Program-made: the position numbers and the translations under genes
Part shown: positions 996 through 29,520 of the stretch, piece by piece
Layout of the letters: each line of letters opens with the position of its first letter
Numbering within the stretch: position 1 is the stretch's first letter
IMG/VR virus record: IMGVR_UViG_3300017780_003067
Coordinates: 1-41,636 of that record
Length of the DNA stretch: 41,636 bases
Reading direction: 5' to 3' (one strand)
Source: a virus
Taxonomy: Duplodnaviria > Caudoviricetes
Notes under the pieces: model-generated
What the model saw: only the letters and a program-made list of their open reading frames with translations
Told to the model about the DNA's origin: nothing
Database searches by the model: none

Positions 996-1199
996 TTATT
1001 TATCTAATAGCGTTAAGTTATAAAATGTTTCATCATCTAAAAGGTCATGAGACTTTCTAGCAATCATAATCAGAGTGTCAATAATTTCGTCCTTTAAAGG
1101 AGTATTTCTTTTAGATTTGCTGCCTTTTTTAGCCAAATAAGCTAATTTGCTTATTGTATTTTCGCTTTCTTCTGAAAGCACTACGTTTGTTTTTGCCAT
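996..1199 (-). CDS. Small putative DNA-binding protein (RHH-like)
   Basis: 67 aa, N-terminal beta-strand pattern (KTNVVLS) then helices; TAAGTTTG promoter element at 1219-1226. Confidence 0.5.
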   Translation of the reverse strand: MAKTNVVLSEESENTISKLAYLAKKGSKSKRNTPLKDEIIDTLIMIARKSHDLLDDETFYNLTLLDK

Positions 1200-1218
1200 T
1201 GTCTTATTATTTATTTAG

Positions 1219-1261
1219 CAAACTTAGTCATAATTATTTTAAATAACTACAACTAAGTTTA
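1219..1261. promoter_or_regulatory. Inverted repeat containing a leftward -7 promoter element
   Basis: AAACTTAGT (1220-1228) and ACTAAGTTT (1252-1260); minus-strand TAAGTTTG matches the Bacteroidota -7 consensus TAnnTTTG. Confidence 0.5.
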
Positions 1262-1309
1262 AATAATAAATACAGATAATTATAATGTACTTAACTTATT
1301 ATAAATCAA

Positions 1310-1347
1310 TAGTGCAAAATACAGTTGCTGATATACATTCGTTATGC
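1310..1347 (+). other. attI-like left terminus of the cassette array
   Basis: GATATACATTC-GTTATGC: core GTT at 1341 with no attC hairpin to its left; the ATAC-N4/5-GTT spacing resembles the right arms of attC2 and attC8. Confidence 0.5.
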
Positions 1348-1377
1348 GATATGGTATAAGTCCAACCATATCGCATA
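1343..1377 (-). terminator. 13-bp hairpin closing leftward transcription of the array
   Basis: TATGCGATATGGT (1343-1355) pairs with ACCATATCGCATA (1365-1377), immediately after the stop of 1383..1865; no clear U-tract. Confidence 0.45.
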
Positions 1378-1382
1378 GTTTA

Positions 1383-1865
1383 CTAATTAAGCAATTTTTT
1401 AAGTAACTCTAATTCACTTTCTGACATTGAATTTACTTTATCAACCAGAGACAACATCTTTTCTATTTTGTAAAAATCTATTGAATTAATTTGAGAAAGC
1501 ATTCTTTCAAGATTTGTTTTTGTACCCTCAATGCTTTTTCTCGTATTTTCAGAAATAGAATCCAACTTTTTAAACGTATCATTTGCTTTTTTATAGATGT
1601 CCTCTATTTCTAAAACATAAGCATCTTGGCATTTAGAAAAAGCGTCTTTTATACCTATAAGTTTCGCTGAATACTTTACAGTACTTTCATCTATTTGCCT
1701 TAATTCATCATTTAACCATTCTTTTTCGCTTGCTAAATAGTTTTTTAGAATGGTTTCTTGCATTACTTTATTATCTTTTGCAAGTTCAAACTCTTTTTTC
1801 AAAGTAGGAGTTACGTAAACTGCAACATATTCACTTCTTTCTTCTTTTTTTGATTCGGTTGACAT
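1383..1865 (-). CDS. Cassette 1 hypothetical coiled-coil protein
   Basis: 160-aa helical ORF filling the cassette GTTATGCGAT(1341)...ATCGCATAAC(1918). Confidence 0.8.
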   Translation of the reverse strand: MSTESKKEERSEYVAVYVTPTLKKEFELAKDNKVMQETILKNYLASEKEWLNDELRQIDESTVKYSAKLIGIKDAFSKCQDAYVLEIEDIYKKANDTFKKLDSISENTRKSIEGTKTNLERMLSQINSIDFYKIEKMLSLVDKVNSMSESELELLKKLLN

Positions 1866-1911
1866 TTTATTTATTGTTTAAATTGTTACTAATGAATTAA
1901 AAACCACAATC

Positions 1912-2040
1912 GCATAACACTGTGCTTTTAAAATTTGGGGCTTTACTGGTCATTTGGGCGGTTTTGCCTCTCAGTAATCTACAACTGTTGACACTTCCGT
2001 ATTATTTAGCCCCAAATTTCATAAGCACCTAGCGTTAGCG
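1912..2040 (+). repeat. attC-like site 1 (129 bp)
   Basis: GCATAAC-ACT-GTGCTTTTAAAATTTGGGGCT...AGCCCCAAATTTCATAAGCAC-CTAGC-GTTAGCG. Confidence 0.85.
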
Positions 2041-2046
2041 GTAATA

Positions 2047-2820
2047 CTAAAATCCGCATCGCTGCCTAGCAATCTCGTAATATTTTAATTCCTTTTCAAT
2101 CCCTATAAACTTTCTATTGAGTTCTTTTGCAGCTAAACAAGTTGTGCCAGAACCCATTGTATTATCCATTACCATGTCATTTTCGTTAGAAAATGCACTA
2201 ATCAATGTTTTAAATAAAGGAATCGGCTTTTGTGTTGGATGCAACCCAAGTTCTCTATTGCACTTTAAAACACTACTACTATGTTTAGTATTACTTGTGG
2301 TATCAATAGCCTTTATTTTAGCATTACCTATTACATCTGGCGTGCTAATTCTATTATTTCTACTTTCATTCCTTTTGTCTTTTTCTAATCTTATTACTTT
2401 TTGTGGGTTATATGTTGGTGGCTTTTTATAAAATACTAATATGTTTTCATGAAAATTTAGCCATCTTTTTTTTGCTAATAATGGATTTGATGGGTTTGGT
2501 TTTTCAAATATTAACTCGTATTTAAACAGCTTAGTATTGCTCATTACCAATGCACTTGTAAATGGTTGTGAAGCGGTCAAAACTATTGCTCCGTTATCTG
2601 TAATTATTCTTTCGTATTCCTTCCAAAGTTTATCAAAAGGCAAAATAGTATCCCATTTACAAGCCGTTGTTCCATATGGCAAATCAGCCAGAATTAATTG
2701 AACTGACTTGTCAGGTATCAAAGGAAATACATCAAAGCAATCAGCATGGTATAAAGTACTACCGCTAACACTGTATTTTATAAAATCGGGGCGGTCTTCT
2801 ATTGGGTTAGTTTCTTGCAT
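2047..2820 (-). CDS. Cassette 2 orphan DNA methyltransferase (N6-A/N4-C, beta-type order)
   Basis: Motif IV ADLPYG precedes HPTQKP and motif I DNTMGSGTT; the start codon lies inside attC2. Confidence 0.92.
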   Translation of the reverse strand: MQETNPIEDRPDFIKYSVSGSTLYHADCFDVFPLIPDKSVQLILADLPYGTTACKWDTILPFDKLWKEYERIITDNGAIVLTASQPFTSALVMSNTKLFKYELIFEKPNPSNPLLAKKRWLNFHENILVFYKKPPTYNPQKVIRLEKDKRNESRNNRISTPDVIGNAKIKAIDTTSNTKHSSSVLKCNRELGLHPTQKPIPLFKTLISAFSNENDMVMDNTMGSGTTCLAAKELNRKFIGIEKELKYYEIARQRCGF

Positions 2821-2893
2821 TTAGTTACTATTTTAGCGGTGGATAATTACGGCTTCGGAAAGCCCCTATTTTCTTAAATACTTAGCGTTATGC
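2763..2893 (+). repeat. attC-like site 2 (131 bp)
   Basis: CGCTAAC-ACT-GTATTTTATAAAATCGGGGC...GCCCCTATTTTCTTAAATAC-TTAGC-GTTATGC. Confidence 0.85.
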
Positions 2894-2899
2894 GATACC

Positions 2900-3100
2900 T
2901 TATAAATCCTTGCGTTGTTCATTTCTAATTGCTTCGTATGCTGCAATTTCAACCCTAGCAAAGAACTCATCATACGTTTCGCCATTTTTTGCATAAAATT
3001 TGTAATCATCGGCTTTTATGCGCCATCTAATTTCCTTTGTCTTAAAAGGGAGTTTGGGGCGTTTTGCCCCTTCTCGCTTTCCTCCGTGTCCGTTTGCCAT
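2900..3100 (-). CDS. Cassette 3 small basic DNA-binding protein (GGxRxGA family)
   Basis: MANGHGGKREGAKRPK; near-identical to 6836..7048 but 4 codons shorter (CAA to TAA). Confidence 0.8.
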   Translation of the reverse strand: MANGHGGKREGAKRPKLPFKTKEIRWRIKADDYKFYAKNGETYDEFFARVEIAAYEAIRNEQRKDL

Positions 3101-3402
3101 TATTTTGCTTGGTATTCTATTGTTTTAGGAATAAAAACATGTCCGTCTGGAACGCTATCTCTGTAAGAACCTAAAAATATAGCCCAATCCGTTCCAAATG
3201 AATCTATATTGTAAACAGTGTTGTTTGATTGATTTGCAAAATTTTCTTTTACCTCTTCAATTGCTTCTTCTAATGTTTCTGCCTCTAATTGAAAGCCACA
3301 CAAACCACATAGTTTTTCTCTTTTGCCATTATCATTAAAATGATTGCTATATCCTCTTTTAAGGTCTCTTTTGGCGTTTGTTGTGAATCTAAGAAAGTAC
3401 AT
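3100..3402 (-). CDS. Cassette 3 variable hypothetical protein
   Basis: 100-aa ORF after the TATATTTG element (3423-3430); TAATG overlap with the downstream small gene. Confidence 0.8.
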   Translation of the reverse strand: MYFLRFTTNAKRDLKRGYSNHFNDNGKREKLCGLCGFQLEAETLEEAIEEVKENFANQSNNTVYNIDSFGTDWAIFLGSYRDSVPDGHVFIPKTIEYQAK

Positions 3403-3422
3403 ATCTTTGTCGTTTTGTTATA

Positions 3423-3467
3423 CAAATATACGCAATCATCTTGAATTAGTTGCTAATTATTCAAGAT
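3423..3467 (-). promoter_or_regulatory. Cassette 3 internal promoter with inverted-repeat operator
   Basis: -7 TATATTTG at 3423-3430; ATCTTGAAT (3438-3446) / ATTCAAGAT (3459-3467); conserved in cassette 9. Confidence 0.6.
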
Positions 3468-3508
3468 TATTTTCAAAATATTTCTAACTGACTGAAAGAA
3501 AGGCAATC

Positions 3509-3570
3509 GCATAACACTACCTATACGCAAGCTTCGTTCCTCAGCCATGCGTATAGCTTTAGCGTTAGCG
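3509..3570 (+). repeat. attC-like site 3 (62 bp)
   Basis: GCATAAC-ACTAC-CTATACGCAAG...CATGCGTATAG-CTTTAGC-GTTAGCG; nearly identical to attC5. Confidence 0.88.
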
Positions 3571-3576
3571 GAAGCC

Positions 3577-3771
3577 CTAAGACAAAACCCATCGAAGCAT
3601 TTCAATCTTTTGGTTAGCTACTGTTTCTTTTTCTTGCAAGTTACCATATGCAGTAGAACCATTTTCACGTTCATAATCAGACCATTTATATTCTGACTGC
3701 TGTTTTTTCCAATATTTAACTTCATCTTGAAGTTGGCTTATTTTACTTTCTATTTCGTCTTTACGTTTCAT
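3577..3771 (-). CDS. Cassette 4 hypothetical protein
   Basis: 64-aa helical ORF filling the cassette GTTAGCGGAA(3564)...TTCCGCTAAC(3815). Confidence 0.75.
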   Translation of the reverse strand: MKRKDEIESKISQLQDEVKYWKKQQSEYKWSDYERENGSTAYGNLQEKETVANQKIEMLRWVLS

Positions 3772-3808
3772 TGTTGTATTGTTTTTTATGATTAAAAGAA
3801 GGGTATTC

Positions 3809-3941
3809 CGCTAACACTATATTCTCGCATTTGTGGGCGTTATGGCTTCATTTTGCGGTTCGCTTGCCTTACATCAGCCGTTTTCGGTGGATAGGTCGCC
3901 CCGATCTAAGCCCACAAAAGCGTGAATATTTAGCGTTATGC
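3809..3941 (+). repeat. attC-like site 4 (133 bp)
   Basis: CGCTAAC-ACT-ATATTCTCGCATTTGTGGGC...GCCCACAAAAGCGTGAATAT-TTAGC-GTTATGC. Confidence 0.85.
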
Positions 3942-4145
3942 GATACCTTGTAAAAGTTCTTGGTACTTCTTTTGCATCGCTGTTTTGAGTCTAGCAAAAA
4001 ACGCCTCATATTCTTCGTTTGTGGAGAACTTTTCAAAATCTTGACCAGTAACTCGAATTGAAATAGTTTTTGTTTTGAAAGCGTAAAGAGTGGGGCGTTT
4101 TGCCCCCTCTCGCTTTCCTCCTCTAGTTTCTTTTTTCGTAGCCAT
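3936..4145 (-). CDS. Cassette 5 small basic DNA-binding protein (GGxRxGA family)
   Basis: RGGKREGAKRP...KTKTISIRV; stop codon is the TAA within the core site at 3935. Confidence 0.8.
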   Translation of the reverse strand: MATKKETRGGKREGAKRPTLYAFKTKTISIRVTGQDFEKFSTNEEYEAFFARLKTAMQKKYQELLQGIA

Positions 4146-4315
4146 TATGCTATTTGAACAGTGATAGAATCTCTATATTTTATCAACTCTAAAATCCATT
4201 CTTTCCACTCTGAATCTGGAAGTTCATTTAAAGGTTTGCCAGCTCTTTTTAATTGAGAATTAATTTGAACATTTAATGCTCTCCATTCGTCTCTAAGTTT
4301 TATAGCGTTTTTCAT
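4145..4315 (-). CDS. Cassette 5 variable hypothetical protein (56 aa, not in ORF track)
   Basis: Own translation MKNAIKLRDEWRALNVQINSQLKRAGKPLNELPDSEWKEWILELIKYRDSITVQIA; TAATG overlap with 3936..4145. Confidence 0.75.
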   Translation of the reverse strand: MKNAIKLRDEWRALNVQINSQLKRAGKPLNELPDSEWKEWILELIKYRDSITVQIA

Positions 4316-4337
4316 GTCTTTGTCGTTTTATCTGATG

Positions 4338-4368
4338 TAAAGGTACGACTTATTTTGAATACTGCAAA
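4338..4368 (-). promoter_or_regulatory. Cassette 5 internal Bacteroidota-type promoter
   Basis: TTTG-N19-TACCTTTA on the minus strand (consensus TTTG-N19/21-TAnnTTTG). Confidence 0.7.
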
Positions 4369-4434
4369 CAATAATCAATAATATTTTACAATTATTTTCA
4401 AAATATTTCTAACTAACTGATAATAAAGGCAATC

Positions 4435-4496
4435 GCATAACACTAGCTATACGCAAGCTTCGTTCCTCAGCCATGCGTATAGCTTTAGCGTTAGCA
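4435..4496 (+). repeat. attC-like site 5 (62 bp)
   Basis: GCATAAC-ACTA-GCTATACGCAAG...CATGCGTATAGC-TTTAGC-GTTAGCA. Confidence 0.88.
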
Positions 4497-4502
4497 GTAA
4501 TA

Positions 4503-5285
4503 CTACATTCCATCTCCGAATGAAGTTACTACTGTAAATTCTTTTTCTTTTCTTTTTTCTTCCACCCTCTTTAAAGAAATATTAAAATAATCCATATTAT
4601 TCTCAATTCCGATAAAGTTTCTATTGGTGTTTATACAAGCAATTCCTGTGGTACAACTTCCAAAAGTATTGTCAAGTATTGTATCATTTTCGTTGGTATA
4701 TGTTTTTGTCAAGTTTTCTAAAAGCTCTAATGGTTTTTGGGTTGGATGCAATCCCCTATTACCACCTGTTGTGCTATTATTTGCTTTTATAATGCTTTGT
4801 GGAAAAGCAACATCAATATTATCAGTTCTTTCTGCATTAGGGTCAAATAAGCCATAACAAGTTGTTGCGGTTGCTACTTTTTTATTAGGTCTTATATTTT
4901 TGGCTATTTTAATAGTTTTTTGTGGGTTATAAGTCGGTTGCTTATCATAAAATATTAAAATATCTTCGTGTTTTCTCATTGGCATTTTATTAGCGTTTAA
5001 ATGCCCTGTTGAATGGCTTTTTTCATATACAAGGGAATATTTCAACCATTTCAAATTTGAACAACCAAGCACACTTGTAAAAGGTTGTGAAGCAAAAAGC
5101 ACAACAACTCCATTAGATTTTAAAATTCTCTTATATTGCTCCCAAATCTTATCTAATGGCAATAAACTATCCCATTTGTTTTGAGTTGTACCATACGGCA
5201 AATCCGCAATAATTGCATCAATACTTTTATCAGGTATCAATTTCATTTGTTCTATTGTATCCCCGTATCTTAAATCTATTGTCAT
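4503..5285 (-). CDS. Cassette 6 orphan DNA methyltransferase (N6-A/N4-C)
   Basis: ADLPYG, HPTQKP, DNTFGSCTT (motif I with G-to-C variant), FIGIE. Confidence 0.92.
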   Translation of the reverse strand: MTIDLRYGDTIEQMKLIPDKSIDAIIADLPYGTTQNKWDSLLPLDKIWEQYKRILKSNGVVVLFASQPFTSVLGCSNLKWLKYSLVYEKSHSTGHLNANKMPMRKHEDILIFYDKQPTYNPQKTIKIAKNIRPNKKVATATTCYGLFDPNAERTDNIDVAFPQSIIKANNSTTGGNRGLHPTQKPLELLENLTKTYTNENDTILDNTFGSCTTGIACINTNRNFIGIENNMDYFNISLKRVEEKRKEKEFTVVTSFGDGM

Positions 5286-5376
5286 AATTTTATTTTAATA
5301 TTTCCCAACCGCTCAAAAAAGAAAAGAAAAAGGTTCAGTTCTCCGAATGAGCATTTGTGATTAATTACCGTACTAC

Positions 5377-5442
5377 TGCTAACACCACCTACACGCAAGT
5401 TTTGTGAAAAACAAAACCTGACGTATAGCTTTAGCGTTAGCC
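5377..5442 (+). repeat. attC-like site 6 (66 bp)
   Basis: TGCTAAC-ACCAC-CTACACGCAAGTTTTG...CAAAACCTGACGTATAG-CTTTAGC-GTTAGCC. Confidence 0.85.
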
Positions 5443-6279
5443 GCAATACGCAGACACCCTGCTAACGGCAATTTCAAAATACTTTTCATCTTTCTCTATT
5501 CCGATAAAGTGCCGACCTGTTTTTTTGCAAGCGACACCTGTTGTTCCTGAACCCATACAATTATCTAAAACCGTATCGCCTTCGTTGGTGTATGTTTTTA
5601 TTAAATATTCCATTAATGCCACAGGTTTTTGCGTTGGATGTACTTTGTCTTTTAAATCCACAGGAAAATAAATTACACTTTTAGCCAAGTTTTTATCAGC
5701 TTCAAAATCTTCGTGTGATTTTATTTTAGTTGGGTTCGGTCTTGGTAGCAAGTCTTTCATCGTTTGCGTTCTTTCAACTTCTCTTTGTGGCTGTCTTGGC
5801 TTCCTATCGGTCTTTTGTGAATTATATGTTGCTTTTATTCTTGCATTGTGAGTAAATCCACCTTTTGAAAAAACCAAAATTTCTTCGTGTATTTTCAATG
5901 GCTGATAACTGCCAGCTAAGAAGTTTGCACACTTATCTTTCTCCCAAATAAAAGTATGTTTAAATAGTTTTGTGTTACTCATTACAACTGCACTTGTAAA
6001 AGGCTGCTGTGCCGATAAAACAATACTTCCGTTATCTTTTATAATTCTTTCGTATTGTTTCCAAAGTGGCTCAAATGGAATAATTAAATCCCAAACGGCT
6101 TCCGTTGTATTATAAGGCAAATCGCACAAAATCATATCCACTGACTTATCAGCAATCTTGTCCATTTCCACAAGGCAATCACCCTGATAGAAAGTACTGC
6201 GGCTAACAGCAGCTATACAAAAGGCGGGTTTTAGTGGTTCAATCATATTTTCGTTTTCAAATAAAGTTTTCTGCATCAT
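5437..6279 (-). CDS. Cassette 7 orphan DNA methyltransferase (N6-A/N4-C)
   Basis: CDLPYN, HPTQKP, DNCMGSGTT; starts inside attC7 and stops in the core site at 5436. Confidence 0.92.
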   Translation of the reverse strand: MMQKTLFENENMIEPLKPAFCIAAVSRSTFYQGDCLVEMDKIADKSVDMILCDLPYNTTEAVWDLIIPFEPLWKQYERIIKDNGSIVLSAQQPFTSAVVMSNTKLFKHTFIWEKDKCANFLAGSYQPLKIHEEILVFSKGGFTHNARIKATYNSQKTDRKPRQPQREVERTQTMKDLLPRPNPTKIKSHEDFEADKNLAKSVIYFPVDLKDKVHPTQKPVALMEYLIKTYTNEGDTVLDNCMGSGTTGVACKKTGRHFIGIEKDEKYFEIAVSRVSAYCG

Positions 6280-6333
6280 ATTAAATTTAGTGTTTCAAAA
6301 TCCCGCCCTTCGTATAGCTGCGAAACGTTAGGT
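6201..6333 (+). repeat. attC-like site 7 (133 bp)
   Basis: GGCTAAC-A-GCAGCTATACAAAAGGCGGGTTTT...AAAATCCCGCCCTTCGTATAGCTGC-GAAAC-GTTAGGT. Confidence 0.88.
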
Positions 6334-6364
6334 GAAAACTTAGAAAGGCTGACGCATTTGCTGG

Positions 6365-6748
6365 CTAATTCCTAAAACTACTAGAAATCATATCTTTGAT
6401 CCGTTGCGTTTCGCCCTCTCCATAAACTAGGTCGTAAAAATTCTCAGACGCTTTGTTTATATCGTTTACCTCAAAATGACTAAATAAAATTTCAATTGAT
6501 AACTTATCCGATAATAAAGAATCTAATTCTTTATCAACAAGCCTTATCCATTCTAAAGCTGACTTTGTTGCACCACCACAAAGTCTTGCACCAAATAAGC
6601 GGTGAAAAGCCTCTAAATCTTTCTTCCCGACTTCATGTAATAAACTGTCAGAAATTGAACGGTGATATTGATTTAAAAACGCAATTACAACAAAATGCCA
6701 AGATTTGCTGTTTTTTGGATAATTTTCTAATAAATATTTATTTATCAT
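6365..6748 (-). CDS. Cassette 8 hypothetical protein
   Basis: 127-aa ORF filling the cassette GTTAGGTGAA(6327)...TTCACCTAAC(6793). Confidence 0.75.
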   Translation of the reverse strand: MINKYLLENYPKNSKSWHFVVIAFLNQYHRSISDSLLHEVGKKDLEAFHRLFGARLCGGATKSALEWIRLVDKELDSLLSDKLSIEILFSHFEVNDINKASENFYDLVYGEGETQRIKDMISSSFRN

Positions 6749-6786
6749 GTTTTAACAAATTTATACAGTTGAAAAAAAAGTCGTTC

Positions 6787-6841
6787 ACCTAACACTGTAT
6801 AGAAGCCATTGAAGGAACGGCTTCTATACCTAGCGTTATGC
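6787..6841 (+). repeat. attC-like site 8 (55 bp)
   Basis: ACCTAAC-ACT-GTATAGAAGCC...GGCTTCTATAC-CTAGC-GTTATGC. Confidence 0.88.
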
Positions 6842-7048
6842 GATACCTTGTAAATCCCTACGTTGTTCATTTCTAATCGCTTCGTATGCTGCAATTTCAA
6901 CCCTAGCAAAGAACTCATCATACGTTTCGCCATTTTTTGCATAAAAGTGGTAGTCATCGGCTTTTATTCGCCATCTGATCTCTTTAGTTTTAAAAGGGAG
7001 TTTGGGGCGTTTTGCCCCTTCTCGCTTTCCTCCGTGTCCGTTTGCCAT
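6836..7048 (-). CDS. Cassette 9 small basic DNA-binding protein (GGxRxGA family)
   Basis: Paralogue of 2900..3100; stop in the core site at 6835. Confidence 0.8.
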   Translation of the reverse strand: MANGHGGKREGAKRPKLPFKTKEIRWRIKADDYHFYAKNGETYDEFFARVEIAAYEAIRNEQRRDLQGIA

Positions 7049-7332
7049 TAGTTTATTGGGAATGAAAATACAAGATCATTGAATTGTTTGATTTGGCTTT
7101 TCTCACAAACAACTGCTTTTTCTGGATGGTAGATTATATATTTAGTTGTGTAGTTCATTTTGTGGAAATTAAACAAATCAAACCATTCAACAGAATAAAC
7201 TATAACATCAGCAATTTTAGCTTCTCTAATAGTTACACACTCTTTTACTTCTTCATTTGAAATGCCACATTTTGAAGAAATTGAATTGTAGATAGTGTTT
7301 AGTTCGCTTTGGATGTTTAATAAAGTTGCCAT
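7048..7332 (-). CDS. Cassette 9 variable hypothetical protein
   Basis: 94-aa ORF with TAATG overlap; no visible similarity to 3100..3402 despite shared flanks. Confidence 0.78.
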   Translation of the reverse strand: MATLLNIQSELNTIYNSISSKCGISNEEVKECVTIREAKIADVIVYSVEWFDLFNFHKMNYTTKYIIYHPEKAVVCEKSQIKQFNDLVFSFPIN

Positions 7333-7372
7333 TTGTTTTTCAGTTAATCTTAGCTTCGTTGCTTTCGATATA

Positions 7373-7418
7373 CAATATTACGCATTAATCTTGAATAAGT
7401 TGCTAATTAATCAAGATT
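7373..7418 (-). promoter_or_regulatory. Cassette 9 internal promoter with inverted-repeat operator
   Basis: -7 variant TAATATTG at 7373-7380; AATCTTGA...TCAAGATT inverted repeat as in cassette 3. Confidence 0.55.
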
Positions 7419-7459
7419 ATTTTTAAAATATTTCTAACTGACTGAAAATAAAGGCAATC

Positions 7460-7526
7460 GCATAACACTACCTATACGCAAGTTTTGTGAAAAACAAAAC
7501 CATGCGTATAGCCACGCTCGTTATAA
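7460..7526 (+). repeat. attC-like site 9 (67 bp)
   Basis: GCATAAC-ACTAC-CTATACGCAAGTTTTG...CAAAACCATGCGTATAG-CCACGCTC-GTTATAA. Confidence 0.85.
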
Positions 7527-7527
7527 G

Positions 7528-7686
7528 CTATTTTAAAACAGACCACTCCGATAGCTTACTATTCACCATGTCTTTCAGTTCATCGACTTTTGACACTGGC
7601 ACACGAAAAGCAATAGTAGTGGTAGGTTCGTTGTATTTAGGTTTAGCACCCGAACCTTTTCGGGTGCCACCTGATTTTTTAAGCAT
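7528..7686 (-). CDS. Cassette 10 small basic DNA-binding protein (52 aa, not in ORF track)
   Basis: Own translation MLKKSGGTRKGSGAKPKYNEPTTTIAFRVPVSKVDELKDMVNSKLSEWSVLK; same GGxRxG family; overlaps the stop of 7679..7933. Confidence 0.78.
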   Translation of the reverse strand: MLKKSGGTRKGSGAKPKYNEPTTTIAFRVPVSKVDELKDMVNSKLSEWSVLK

Positions 7687-7933
7687 TGTATGATTTTTTA
7701 TATTTCATCAACAATTTCATTGCGTAAAGATTTGCAGCAGTTTCGTCAGAAAATGATTTGTATTTTGGAGATTCGCCATCAGTTACAAAAACAACATCAA
7801 AGTTGTTATCTGATTCTTTTTGTACAAATGCTGAATAAGAATCAATAGGAGAAAATGTTTTAGTAGAAAGTACGTTGAAAGTATATTCTGTTTGATCAGG
7901 AGTGTTGATGATTTGTACTGTTGAAGTTGTCAT
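7679..7933 (-). CDS. Cassette 10 variable hypothetical protein
   Basis: 84-aa ORF downstream of the promoter at 7957-7987. Confidence 0.78.
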   Translation of the reverse strand: MTTSTVQIINTPDQTEYTFNVLSTKTFSPIDSYSAFVQKESDNNFDVVFVTDGESPKYKSFSDETAANLYAMKLLMKYKKSYNA

Positions 7934-7956
7934 ATCGCTGTTCGTTTTATCTGATG

Positions 7957-7987
7957 TAAAGGTAACACTTTATTTTGATTCTGCAAA
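7957..7987 (-). promoter_or_regulatory. Cassette 10 internal Bacteroidota-type promoter
   Basis: TTTG-N19-TACCTTTA; shares CGTTTTATCTGATGTAAAGGTA with cassette 5. Confidence 0.7.
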
Positions 7988-8037
7988 CTATTTCAAAAAG
8001 AAAGTGAAAATAATTTTCGAGCGACAATAAAAACAGC

Positions 8038-8091
8038 ATATAACACTGTATAGAACGCAACTAAAGTGTGCGTCTATTCTTAGCGTTAGTT
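8038..8091 (+). repeat. attC-like site 10 (54 bp)
   Basis: ATATAAC-ACT-GTATAGAACGCA...TGCGTCTATTC-TTAGC-GTTAGTT. Confidence 0.82.
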
Positions 8092-8457
8092 TCAATCTTG
8101 TAAGACGAGTTCTTCGCCAAAAAGAGCAAAATATAAGTTCTGTAACTGGTGTACAAATTCAATCAATCTTAAACATGTACCTAGAAACCAAAATTCATTT
8201 CCAATAAAATATATGTCATTATTTTTGTCAAAATACCACATCTCGAAATCTTCCGAAATAAATCCAAATCGACCCTTAAAGTAATTATTTAATACAATCG
8301 GCTCTATGTCTTCAAATGAAGTCTCATGGTATGACTCCCCATTAAATGTAGTAAAATTTATTCCTGTTTTTGTAACTGACTCGACCAGTGTTAGTGTCTT
8401 ATCTAATAATACTAAATTGTTTAATGTATACATATTTTCAAATTTTACGGTTGACAA
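8092..8457 (-). CDS. Cassette 11 hypothetical phage protein
   Basis: C-terminal IEFVHQLQNLYFALFGEEL motif recalled from Bacteroidota phage proteins; the start may be the ATG at 8433. Confidence 0.78.
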   Translation of the reverse strand: MSTVKFENMYTLNNLVLLDKTLTLVESVTKTGINFTTFNGESYHETSFEDIEPIVLNNYFKGRFGFISEDFEMWYFDKNNDIYFIGNEFWFLGTCLRLIEFVHQLQNLYFALFGEELVLQD

Positions 8458-8470
8458 AAAAAAGACTAGA

Positions 8471-8559
8471 AACTAACATTGTGTTCAAAAAACGGCAGAT
8501 ACGGTACTACTTTCGATACTGCATTCAGAAGCCGTTTCATGAACACTTCTTCGTTATGC
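8471..8559 (+). repeat. attC-like site 11 (89 bp)
   Basis: AACTAAC-ATT-GTGTTCAAAAAACGGC...GCCGTTTCATGAACAC-TTCTTC-GTTATGC. Confidence 0.82.
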
Positions 8560-8847
8560 ACAATGCTTAGAGGCGTACGCATTAGCAAGTTCACCCAATT
8601 TTTCTTCCTTATAATGAGATCCAACTGGGTTGCCATTTAATGCTCCTTGAAGCTGGTCAACTACTCGTTGTTCATAACCTTTTTTATAGGCATCAATTAT
8701 CTGTTGTTTCTCTTTTTCTAAAAAACTTTCAGCTTTTGACTTTATTATAATTGCTTGATTTTTAGCTCCAATTGCTTCATCTGGCAATACTTTTACGATA
8801 GTATCAATATTCTCAACTAATTCTTGTAATACTGTTTTTTGTGACAT
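8554..8847 (-). CDS. Cassette 12 hypothetical phage protein
   Basis: Likely start MSQKTVLQ; EKEKQQIIDAY motif; stop in the core site at 8553. Confidence 0.78.
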   Translation of the reverse strand: MSQKTVLQELVENIDTIVKVLPDEAIGAKNQAIIIKSKAESFLEKEKQQIIDAYKKGYEQRVVDQLQGALNGNPVGSHYKEEKLGELANAYASKHCA

Positions 8848-8893
8848 ATTCTTATTATTTAAATTGGTTACTAGTGGACAAAAAAGCACGTGT

Positions 8894-9017
8894 GCATAAC
8901 ACATTATTAGCGTTATTGCCTTTCATACGGTTTGATTCTGTACTCATAATTCAGTCTATTTTGTGGTTAAAATTCATTTTTGATAGGCAATAAACGCCAA
9001 TACGTGTCTCGTTATTC
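8894..9017 (+). repeat. attC-like site 12 (124 bp), right end of array
   Basis: GCATAAC-ACATTATTAGCGTTATTGCCT...AGGCAATAAACGCCAATACGTGT-CTC-GTTATTC; the TTA is the stop codon of 9012..9329. Confidence 0.8.
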
Positions 9018-9329
9018 AATTTCAAAATATGAAGTACCAAAAGCATCTTCAAAAGTGCCTTTTTCTTTGTGCAGTTCAATCCAATCGTTTATCATTTTAA
9101 TTTCTGATTCTGAATGGTTGCTAAATTCAATCTCAAAGCTATCGTAATCAATATCAAAACCTGAATCTTGAGGTTCCCATCTTGTTTCTGGCGAACACCA
9201 TTCGTTTACTCGAACGTCAATATCAACCTGAAACGAATTTTCTTCATCATCTGTATCAATGTCCTTAGAGACGGTGTACGTGTAGAAGTTCTCATAATTG
9301 TGTTTCCTGCAATCTATTAAAGTAGCCAT
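9012..9329 (-). CDS. Acidic hypothetical protein
   Basis: 105 aa, very D/E-rich; second gene of the leftward operon leading into the array. Confidence 0.75.
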   Translation of the reverse strand: MATLIDCRKHNYENFYTYTVSKDIDTDDEENSFQVDIDVRVNEWCSPETRWEPQDSGFDIDYDSFEIEFSNHSESEIKMINDWIELHKEKGTFEDAFGTSYFEIE

Positions 9330-9331
9330 TA

Positions 9332-9529
9332 TTATAGATATAAATTGTGTAAAATTCTTTGTTTTGATACACTATCTATTTTTTGGAGTATCTCTAATTT
9401 AGAGAAATGATTCTTAACCGAGACAAGATTTATTTCTTCCATTGTGTCAATTGTGGTGCAAACATCAACCATCATATATTGTGGTGAAAGTTCGCCTGTT
9501 ATTTGTATTGGTGTTATTATCGTTGTCAT
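9332..9529 (-). CDS. Hypothetical protein
   Basis: 65-aa first gene after the leftward promoter. Confidence 0.7.
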   Translation of the reverse strand: MTTIITPIQITGELSPQYMMVDVCTTIDTMEEINLVSVKNHFSKLEILQKIDSVSKQRILHNLYL

Positions 9530-9551
9530 TTGCGTTCCTGATTAACTGATG

Positions 9552-9624
9552 CAAATGTATAACAAAGATTTTAATAAAAAAACTTTTTTTTGGGTTGTTT
9601 TTAAGTTTTTTTAGTTTACCTTTG
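9552..9624. promoter_or_regulatory. Divergent early promoters
   Basis: Leftward TACATTTG (9552-9559); rightward TTG(9595)-N19-TACCTTTG (9617-9624). Confidence 0.7.
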
Positions 9625-9644
9625 TCAAACAATAAACGCAAAAC

Positions 9645-28677: not shown

Positions 28678-29520
28678 ATGAAAAAATTAGATTGGACTCC
28701 CGTAACGGCTGCAAATGGACTTGTCTTTGAAGAGCAAACCTTTGAACACATGAATAATGGGCATAAGGATAGTTATATTGCATTTGTAAAAGCAAATATA
28801 CCCAGCGCATGGCATACTGGAAAGTTAGTTGTATTGTACGGTTGTGTCGCTACTGGAACAAATCCAGGGGCAAGGACATTAACGTCAGGGGCTGTTTATT
28901 ATAGTGGGGAAGTTTACCAAGTTGACTCAGCTTCTTTTTCAACAACTGGTAGTCAAATAGGAATATGGACACTTACCGATGTTGACAGCGGTACTGATGA
29001 ATCAACCATTAAAACGGCTTCAAGTTCATTCACAGATCACGTTTTAGTTAATTCTAAATTTGTATTTGCTGCTGGGTTGTCAGGAACAGGGACTTTTGAC
29101 GAAAACAGTACAAACATTTTGTACTATCAAGATGGATTATATGAAGTATTGTCATATACACTAGGTATATTGGCAACTTCTAGTTATGTCACAACACCTA
29201 CTTCTTACATATCTACACCTTCTACAATTGTAACATTAACCCCAAGTACAACAAAATCAAATGCAAATGTATTAGTTTTGTTTTCGGCAGAAGTAACCAG
29301 CGCAACAACATCAGGTACTACAAGTAGGATAAATATCAAAAAGAATGGTACTACTATTAGAACTCAGGCTTGTACTCCAGAGCTTTCTGGGCAATCAGCT
29401 ATATCTATGCAATGTATAACATCTTATGTTGCTTCTGATATATTTACTGTTACAGCGGAAACAAGCGCAAGTGACTCTAATATTAATAACTATCAGCTTA
29501 TTGTAAAATCTTTATTTTAA
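28678..29520 (+). CDS. Tail fibre/baseplate-attached protein
   Basis: VVLYGC...SGAVYYSGEVYQV N-terminal domain; S/T-rich beta C-terminus. Confidence 0.55.
   Translation: MKKLDWTPVTAANGLVFEEQTFEHMNNGHKDSYIAFVKANIPSAWHTGKLVVLYGCVATGTNPGARTLTSGAVYYSGEVYQVDSASFSTTGSQIGIWTLTDVDSGTDESTIKTASSSFTDHVLVNSKFVFAAGLSGTGTFDENSTNILYYQDGLYEVLSYTLGILATSSYVTTPTSYISTPSTIVTLTPSTTKSNANVLVLFSAEVTSATTSGTTSRINIKKNGTTIRTQACTPELSGQSAISMQCITSYVASDIFTVTAETSASDSNINNYQLIVKSLF

Follow-up and report, generated by a model that had tools for sequence, protein, structure and literature searches.

The complete phage genome held in IMG/VR as record IMGVR_UViG_3300017780_003067 (Duplodnaviria; Caudoviricetes) carries an array of 12 gene units that are mobile cassettes and belong to an integron-like family, departing from integrons on three defining tests. 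The window examined here is the entire record (41,636 nucleotides, or 41.6 kb; 100% complete by CheckV), in which terminase, portal, capsid, tail sheath and baseplate genes are encoded. According to the favored reading, to which a probability of roughly 70% is assigned, the array comprises 12 mobile reversed-gene cassettes, each with its own folding site, that are gained, lost and reordered at GTT; an integron-like tyrosine recombinase of the probably Bacteroidota host or of a co-infecting phage likely excises them as circles and inserts them again. Within this reading, direct observation covers the limits of the units, the pairing of own ends, gains and losses in relatives that are precise to GTT, the reversal of the genes and a genome devoid of a recombinase. 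A Bacteroidota host is likely, since at the DNA level the array is most closely matched by cultured Flavobacterium phages.

Each of the 12 bodies starts with GTTA and ends with TAAC, with hairpin interiors of 40-119 nt between them, and the main open reading frames (ORFs) of the array all lie on the minus strand, i.e., the genes are reversed in 12/12 units. A preliminary description of the array had proposed that the first bases of each cassette complement its own far end rather than the neighboring arm. The end pairs quoted there are all found at their coordinates, and the proposal holds: counting inward, positions 1-4 are invariant in all 12 units, and at positions 5-10 own ends match in 70/72 cases, compared with 26/72 for the neighboring unit. 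Permuted end pairings gave a mean of 33.7 matches, and none of 200,000 reached 70 (p<1e-5); after removal of look-alike units (7/12 kept), own ends still matched in 40/42 cases (p=0.0002). When the units were closed in silico, the closed site folded better than the in-array hybrid in 12/12, and the bottom strand folded better than the top in 12/12. Position 11 is a mismatch in 11/12 units, positions 12-15 match in 25/48 cases versus 17.7 expected (p=0.004), and matching is at chance at positions 15-30 and 31-60. The complementarity between unit ends, which lie 250-900 bases apart, is thus 10-15 bp long, apart from an extra low-complexity inverted repeat in unit 6, and does not extend over hundreds of bases, as had been claimed. 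Nor are matched ends a special signature, since the classical Vibrio integron shows them too; own-end matching alone is ordinary integron behavior. Among 13 cassettes of the Vibrio anguillarum integron, own ends match in 13/13 through position 8, in 10/13 at position 9 and in about half at positions 10-11, then at chance, and a complementary 7-bp R box is a textbook feature of attC sites (PMC5027507).

The family stands apart in its longer stem, which contains a fixed wobble, in the reversal of its genes and in its enzyme. For a broader view, 173 distinct bodies were defined from consecutive hairpins alone, end pairing not being used, in the window, loci L011-L154 (126 loci, with flanks for 80), cultured phages and recombinase loci; this set was seeded by the hairpin motif and related phages recur in it, so its counts are not independent. 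The own-end match rate is 0.82-0.88 at positions 5-9, 0.64 at 10, 0.03 at 11, 0.74-0.77 at 12-14 and 0.62 at 15, and falls to chance thereafter. At position 11, A faces C in 107/130 well-paired bodies; on the bottom strand, and only there, this makes a T·G pair. Genes are reversed in 166/173 related phage bodies. In 114/115 family sites, the bottom strand folds better than the top, and in 114/115 the circle folds better than the hybrid. The folds predicted for these 115 sites have an outer stem of 15 bp, a one-sided bulge of 3-4 nt next to the crossover and single bulges on the same arm (R'-L'), a shape that the site detector favors.

That the units have actually moved, as the preliminary description held, is shown separately by relatives and by metagenomic contigs. 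The cultured Flavobacterium phages mumin6-1 and mumin6-4 (99.9% identical) are one 506-bp unit apart within their first 11 kb, and sniff9-1 and sniff9-2 (99.9% identical) are one 439-bp unit apart; in such phages, the gained or lost unit is a body plus its downstream hairpin, exact from GTT to GTT. Across nine cultured phages, 23/31 distinct block edges lie at GTT, where chance would give 11-14%. Joints were also counted in contigs from runs of other studies (X2 and X3), with X1 left out as a possible source. In one X2 contig, 2656-2885 is fused to 1340-1446 with zero differences, placing unit 2 before unit 1, a joint that fits a two-unit circle or a reordered array alike. Unit 4 and its hairpin (3563-3939) have other flanks in runs X2 and X3, with 0-1 differences. 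In run X2, moreover, hairpin 1 is followed by unit 5 (2029 to 3931), one contig matches from 6327 (unit 8) with different sequence before it, a different 104-nt interior of hairpin 12 occurs between the same flanks, and a contig with 100% identity to 1183-1344 ends at 1344. In X2 and X3, the joints coincide with unit borders or miss them by a few bases. Two further units recur in Baltic Flavobacterium phages: units 6 and 7, the latter with 80-83% identity in 11 loci compared, each alignment beginning at its GTT.

The same comparisons bear on where strands are exchanged. Freya_10 differs from Freya_1 by 4,942 extra bases at the GTT located 47 nt from its recombinase, and the base preceding G and position 4 are not the same at the junctions, which places the crossover within the GTT triplet or at its edges. 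The proposed crossover within GTT is supported to that extent by Freya, although the window alone cannot place it, GTTA being invariant; a crossover exactly at G^TT would follow by analogy with IntI chemistry.

Two observations concern variation inside units. Unit 6 (4490-5435) and a unit of mymlan6-1 (L011 2822-3774) are near-identical over their first 210 and last 230 bases, with a divergent methyltransferase middle, as if a specificity region had been swapped within a fixed frame, to judge from the alignment. The unit 7 hairpin (6205-6329), compared with L016 and L014, shows two arm sets, both paired, around a conserved loop that encodes the protein N-terminus.

No tyrosine, serine or Y1 recombinase was found anywhere in the record with PF00589, PF00239, PF01797 and a family-profile search; the ORF at 3100-3402 (unit 3) has a weak match to a PHROG 'recombinase' (E 1.7e-4). 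In relatives, a divergent recombinase gene starts 38-55 nt before the first GTT, and this enzyme is also found next to such sites in bacterial genomes. An integron-like enzyme is suggested by this position beside such arrays, and the enzyme-site link is positional rather than functional. In nine loci of one clade, the recombinase and a fixed leader are followed by 7 different first units; first units varying behind a fixed leader, together with the X2 contig ending at 1344, mark this leader as an attI-type entry point for new cassettes. The cultured phages Freya, Leef and Ingeline (L224-L227) have this recombinase, and a GTT leader lies about 47-55 nt upstream of it; Leef and Ingeline are listed with two integrases; the strict detector finds no hairpins in Freya or Ingeline. 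In phages without the enzyme, small minus-strand ORFs of 65-67 aa with no family match occupy the recombinase position (window 996-1199; L012 1397-1594).

The array-adjacent recombinases contain PF13495, an N-terminal domain, and PF00589. Against TIGR02249, the IntI model (cut-off 265), they score 96-209 bits versus 494 for a real IntI; their top model is NF040815, mostly under its cut-off of 220. About 40 residues of the IntI-specific insertion are absent (a gap relative to 2A3V and Vibrio IntI), and motif spacing is 54-59 aa in 19/21 family proteins (2 not measurable) versus 99-100 in 3/4 IntI. In a 34-protein tree, from which Leef and Ingeline are missing owing to a motif filter, the family groups with four IntI and is separated (100/99) from nine XerC/XerD-like proteins; its own clade has support of 88/86, with midpoint rooting and a long Freya branch, and for the 5/9 outgroup proteins checked the best match is to XerC/XerD models. 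The enzymes share their size and the lack of the IntI insertion with XerC/XerD and NF040815 proteins but differ in standing away from chromosomal, Bacteroidota XerC/XerD on the tree, in the PF13495 domain and in their location at cassette arrays. The sub-cut-off scores, the absent insertion and the tree placement make a host IntI less likely to be the enzyme. Within the phylum to which G001 (a Saprospira record) belongs, homologs at E<=1e-50 occur in about 110 of the 301 genomes sampled, by hand count; the raw count of 134/301 includes XerC/XerD.

Several points weigh against the favored reading. Eight of the 31 block edges are off GTT (two at AAC, five inside hairpins and one in a body), block edges in the nine cultured phages are non-independent events, and hairpin arms and gene middles have been exchanged as well; owing to these off-GTT edges and exchanges, homologous recombination is seen to act on the arrays too. 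Only 2 bodies in the Freya_10 insert satisfied the pairing rule. A divergent recombinase was present in the fetched flank of only 2/39 IMG/VR array loci (41-50 nt from the first GTT), and only 5/20 bacterial recombinase loci have sites on the expected side, 8 having one site on the other strand past the gene end and 7 none. In addition, the IntI insertion is held to be essential for integron function (PMC8138268), and four recombinases between IntI and Xer near attC sites, i.e., enzymes without the insertion, were judged not to be IntI (Cury 2016, PMC4889954). In those 8 loci (L190, L193, L197, L199, L200, L204, L205 and L207), the single site lies beyond the 3' end of the recombinase gene and on the strand of that gene, an arrangement of another kind.

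Among the alternatives, the one that survives best, though it is unlikely, is that the array is an ordinary cluster of attC sites lacking an integrase (CALIN), with standard sites moved by the standard IntI of some host. The resemblance is considerable. As in integron cassettes (PMC5027507; PMC4889954), a gene is followed by a downstream folding site, AAC/GTT triplets bound the units, hybrid sites form in the array, own ends are complementary, the bottom strand is preferred, sizes agree, and new units appear at the leader beside a divergent tyrosine recombinase. The window has at least two AAC...GTT sites with a foldable bottom strand (12 sites), as well as own-end R-box complementarity. Qi 2023 described phage CALINs with methyltransferase cargo and reported that IntI1 recombined 5/6 phage sites (PMC9892861). 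However, the outer stem is 10-15 bp with a fixed T·G at position 11, compared with 8-9 bp in the Vibrio control, and the one-sided bulge of 3-4 nt adjoins the crossover. The unpaired bases lie mainly on the arm opposite to the classical extrahelical bases; neither those bases on the R''-L'' arm nor a two-sided central spacer of 5-6 nt is predicted, with a detector that favors the other shape. Phage genes run against the attC top strand and often start in the hairpin. No intI gene lies beside the array, and the relatives' enzymes examined lack the IntI insertion and score below the TIGR02249 cut-off. The family site detector, in turn, yields 1 site in the Vibrio integron locus.

The sites of Qi 2023 are themselves informative. 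P12002L_attC1, the sole family hairpin among them, maps to a family site and failed with IntI1, though the oligonucleotide in that assay had mismatched flanks (PMC9892861). In this Polaribacter phage, attC1 lies between two reversed methyltransferase genes, and the preceding unit has matched ends, as in the window. Qi 2023 read the sites as ordinary attC in divergent directions; the P12002L attC2 maps to the array leader on the opposite strand. P12002L (L209) has two leader copies, at 29236 and 37262. The Muminvirus and Lillamyvirus arrays are absent from the available tables of that study.

Somewhat less probable is that the same enzyme acts with no free circle, either with the ends pairing in linear single-stranded DNA across a body that loops out or with the sites recombining as double-stranded DNA. 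This would agree with an enzyme lacking the part that IntI uses for single-strand substrates and with the lack of a single-unit circle joint among the joints listed from two sets of four runs, which are contigs and drop rare forms. The excisable circles of the preliminary description accordingly stand as mobile cassettes and not as demonstrated circular intermediates, and its view that the extended stem forms only in the circle was too strong, as linear single-stranded DNA looping out the body could give the same pairs. Conversely, own-end pairs extend the hairpin stem in exact register only if the unit is closed at GTT, and inner arms vary yet stay paired, which argues for a fold. The least probable alternative takes the hairpins and matched ends for RNA or expression signals and ascribes the swapping of genes to short words that they share, at which homologous or micro-homology recombination would act: bottom-strand genes do put fold and wobble in the mRNA, the first ATG lies inside the hairpin in 50/125 reversed ORFs, gene middles and hairpin arms are swapped and this genome has no site-specific recombinase, but junction overlaps are only 3-8 bases, many relatives have recombinase and leader at the array head, and in four extended bacterial loci, where 10/11 genes are co-oriented with the site (the opposite of the phages), these top-strand-gene units keep A/C at position 11, so that the wobble follows the DNA strand and not the mRNA.

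If the units are circle-excised cassettes, as favored here, the following sequence of events may be envisaged. The bottom strand would fold when single-stranded, and a recombinase supplied by the host or a co-infecting phage would excise a unit between two hybrid sites. On excision, the two ends of the unit would close an outer stem of 10-15 bp, and the closed full-stem site would be the substrate favored for insertion, whether at the leader or at a different site; preference for the full stem would make both ends of a unit change together. Tyrosine recombinases require about 11-14 bp of duplex for a full arm, and this would account for the greater stem length if the enzyme lacks the IntI insertion. 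Further variation comes from homologous exchange, which affects gene middles and hairpin arms. Transcription is likely leftward, starting at a promoter-like box at 9559 and at boxes within some of the units, and the methyltransferases likely protect phage DNA from host restriction.

The layout of the array is given in the table. It had been placed at 1341..8900; the 12 units hold, and the right limit does not, as hairpin 12 runs to 9013 and a last unit follows from 9011. The GTT at 8912 was ruled out as a unit start, as it lies inside hairpin 12.

Table. Features of the array region; body GTT starts coincide with the left coordinates of units 1-12.
Feature	Position	Strand	Own AAC end of body	Content
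ORF of 67 aa, function unknown	996..1199	-		relatives' recombinase position; no family match; 6 close homologs only; no recombinase-profile match
Leader and first insertion site, attI-like	1200..1344	+		no hairpin; first GTT 1341
Unit 1	1341..2033	+	1918	ORF 1383-1865 (minus); hairpin 1916-2036; also behind unit 2's hairpin in run X2
Unit 2	2034..2886	+	2769	N6/N4 DNA methyltransferase 2047-2820 (minus), PF01555; start codon inside hairpin 2767-2889
Unit 3	2887..3563	+	3515	ORFs 2900-3100, 3100-3402 (minus); promoter-like box 3430; hairpin 3513-3566
Unit 4	3564..3934	+	3815	ORF 3577-3771 (minus); hairpin 3813-3937
Unit 5	3935..4489	+	4441	ORFs 3936-4145, 4145-4315 (minus); hairpin 4439-4492
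Unit 6	4490..5435	+	5383	DNA methyltransferase 4503-5285 (minus), PF01555; inner inverted repeat frame; hairpin 5381-5438
Unit 7	5436..6326	+	6207	DNA methyltransferase 5437-6279 (minus), PF01555; stop in GTTA, start inside hairpin 6205-6329
Unit 8	6327..6834	+	6793	ORF 6365-6748 (minus); hairpin 6791-6837
Unit 9	6835..7519	+	7466	ORFs 6836-7048, 7048-7332 (minus); hairpin 7464-7522
Unit 10	7520..8084	+	8044	ORFs 7528-7686, 7679-7933 (minus); hairpin 8042-8087
Unit 11	8085..8552	+	8477	ORF 8092-8457 (minus), phrog_10066, unknown function; hairpin 8475-8555
Unit 12	8553..9010	+	8900	ORF ending 8554 (minus); hairpin 8898-9013
Last unit	9011..9640	+		no hairpin; ORFs 9012-9329, 9332-9529 (minus); best own-end match only 8/10

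The leader region (1285-1356) has a predicted fold of only -3.9 kcal/mol. Between the leader and the 996-1199 ORF lies a 32-bp inverted repeat (78%; 1208-1272) that overlaps a promoter-like box at 1226. Such boxes were sought by scanning the window for TAnnTTTG, which we take to be a promoter motif; divergent boxes also follow the ORFs of the last unit (9559, minus; 9617, plus). The methyltransferases of units 2 and 7 must begin inside their own hairpins because no Met occurs between the hairpin and the first motif. The unit 6 gene is framed by an inner inverted repeat (4540-4600/5290-5340), with a 10-nt direct repeat near both ends. Four two-gene units (2887-3563, 3935-4489, 6835-7519 and 7520-8084) pair a variable ORF with a small basic protein bearing a GG.R.G motif, and some of them contain a promoter-like box as well; these are possibly small regulator or toxin-antitoxin-like pairs. 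They have no match in Pfam or NCBIfam. Units 3 and 9 are 91% identical across 243 nt.

PADLOC returned methyltransferase-type matches only for the window, and an Rfam search of it gave 0 matches. In IMG/VR, no close relatives were reached through 996-1199, 233-814, 9012-9329 or the exact end motif; 9 loci reached via the 10041 protein had no array under the detection rule used, and a metagenome scan returned the window's own record alone. The literature searched, with subscription papers and bioRxiv supplements outside its range, holds no account of this system. Bacteroidota are among the integron-bearing phyla listed by Ghaly 2021 (PMC8618304). The integrases of Freya, Leef and Danklef have been taken as signs of lysogeny, with no 'integron' or 'cassette' in the available text (PMC8776804).

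These findings offer a possible mechanism for the methyltransferase differences of Nilsson 2020, who tied one methyltransferase to plating efficiency and in whose main text 'cassette' does not occur (PMC7077304), and suggest that current integron tools miss or misread such arrays. Two open questions are how integron integrases acquired the ability to recombine folded single strands and how cassettes arise; an insertion-less enzyme with a longer paired arm makes the former directly testable. Among phages in culture, Muminvirus and Lillamyvirus lack the enzyme, and Freya, Leef and Ingeline possess it. A bolder view, held tentatively at a little short of even odds, is that Bacteroidota and their phages run a second, unrecognized integron-type system, whose recombinase would be a sister of IntI without the insertion, reading a 15-bp arm with a fixed T·G that is complete only in the self-closed cassette, while lytic phages would keep reversed copies and reshuffle anti-restriction methyltransferases with the host enzyme. 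If true, this system would represent a living intermediate that links Xer-type with integron recombination, and cultured phages would allow it to be tested.

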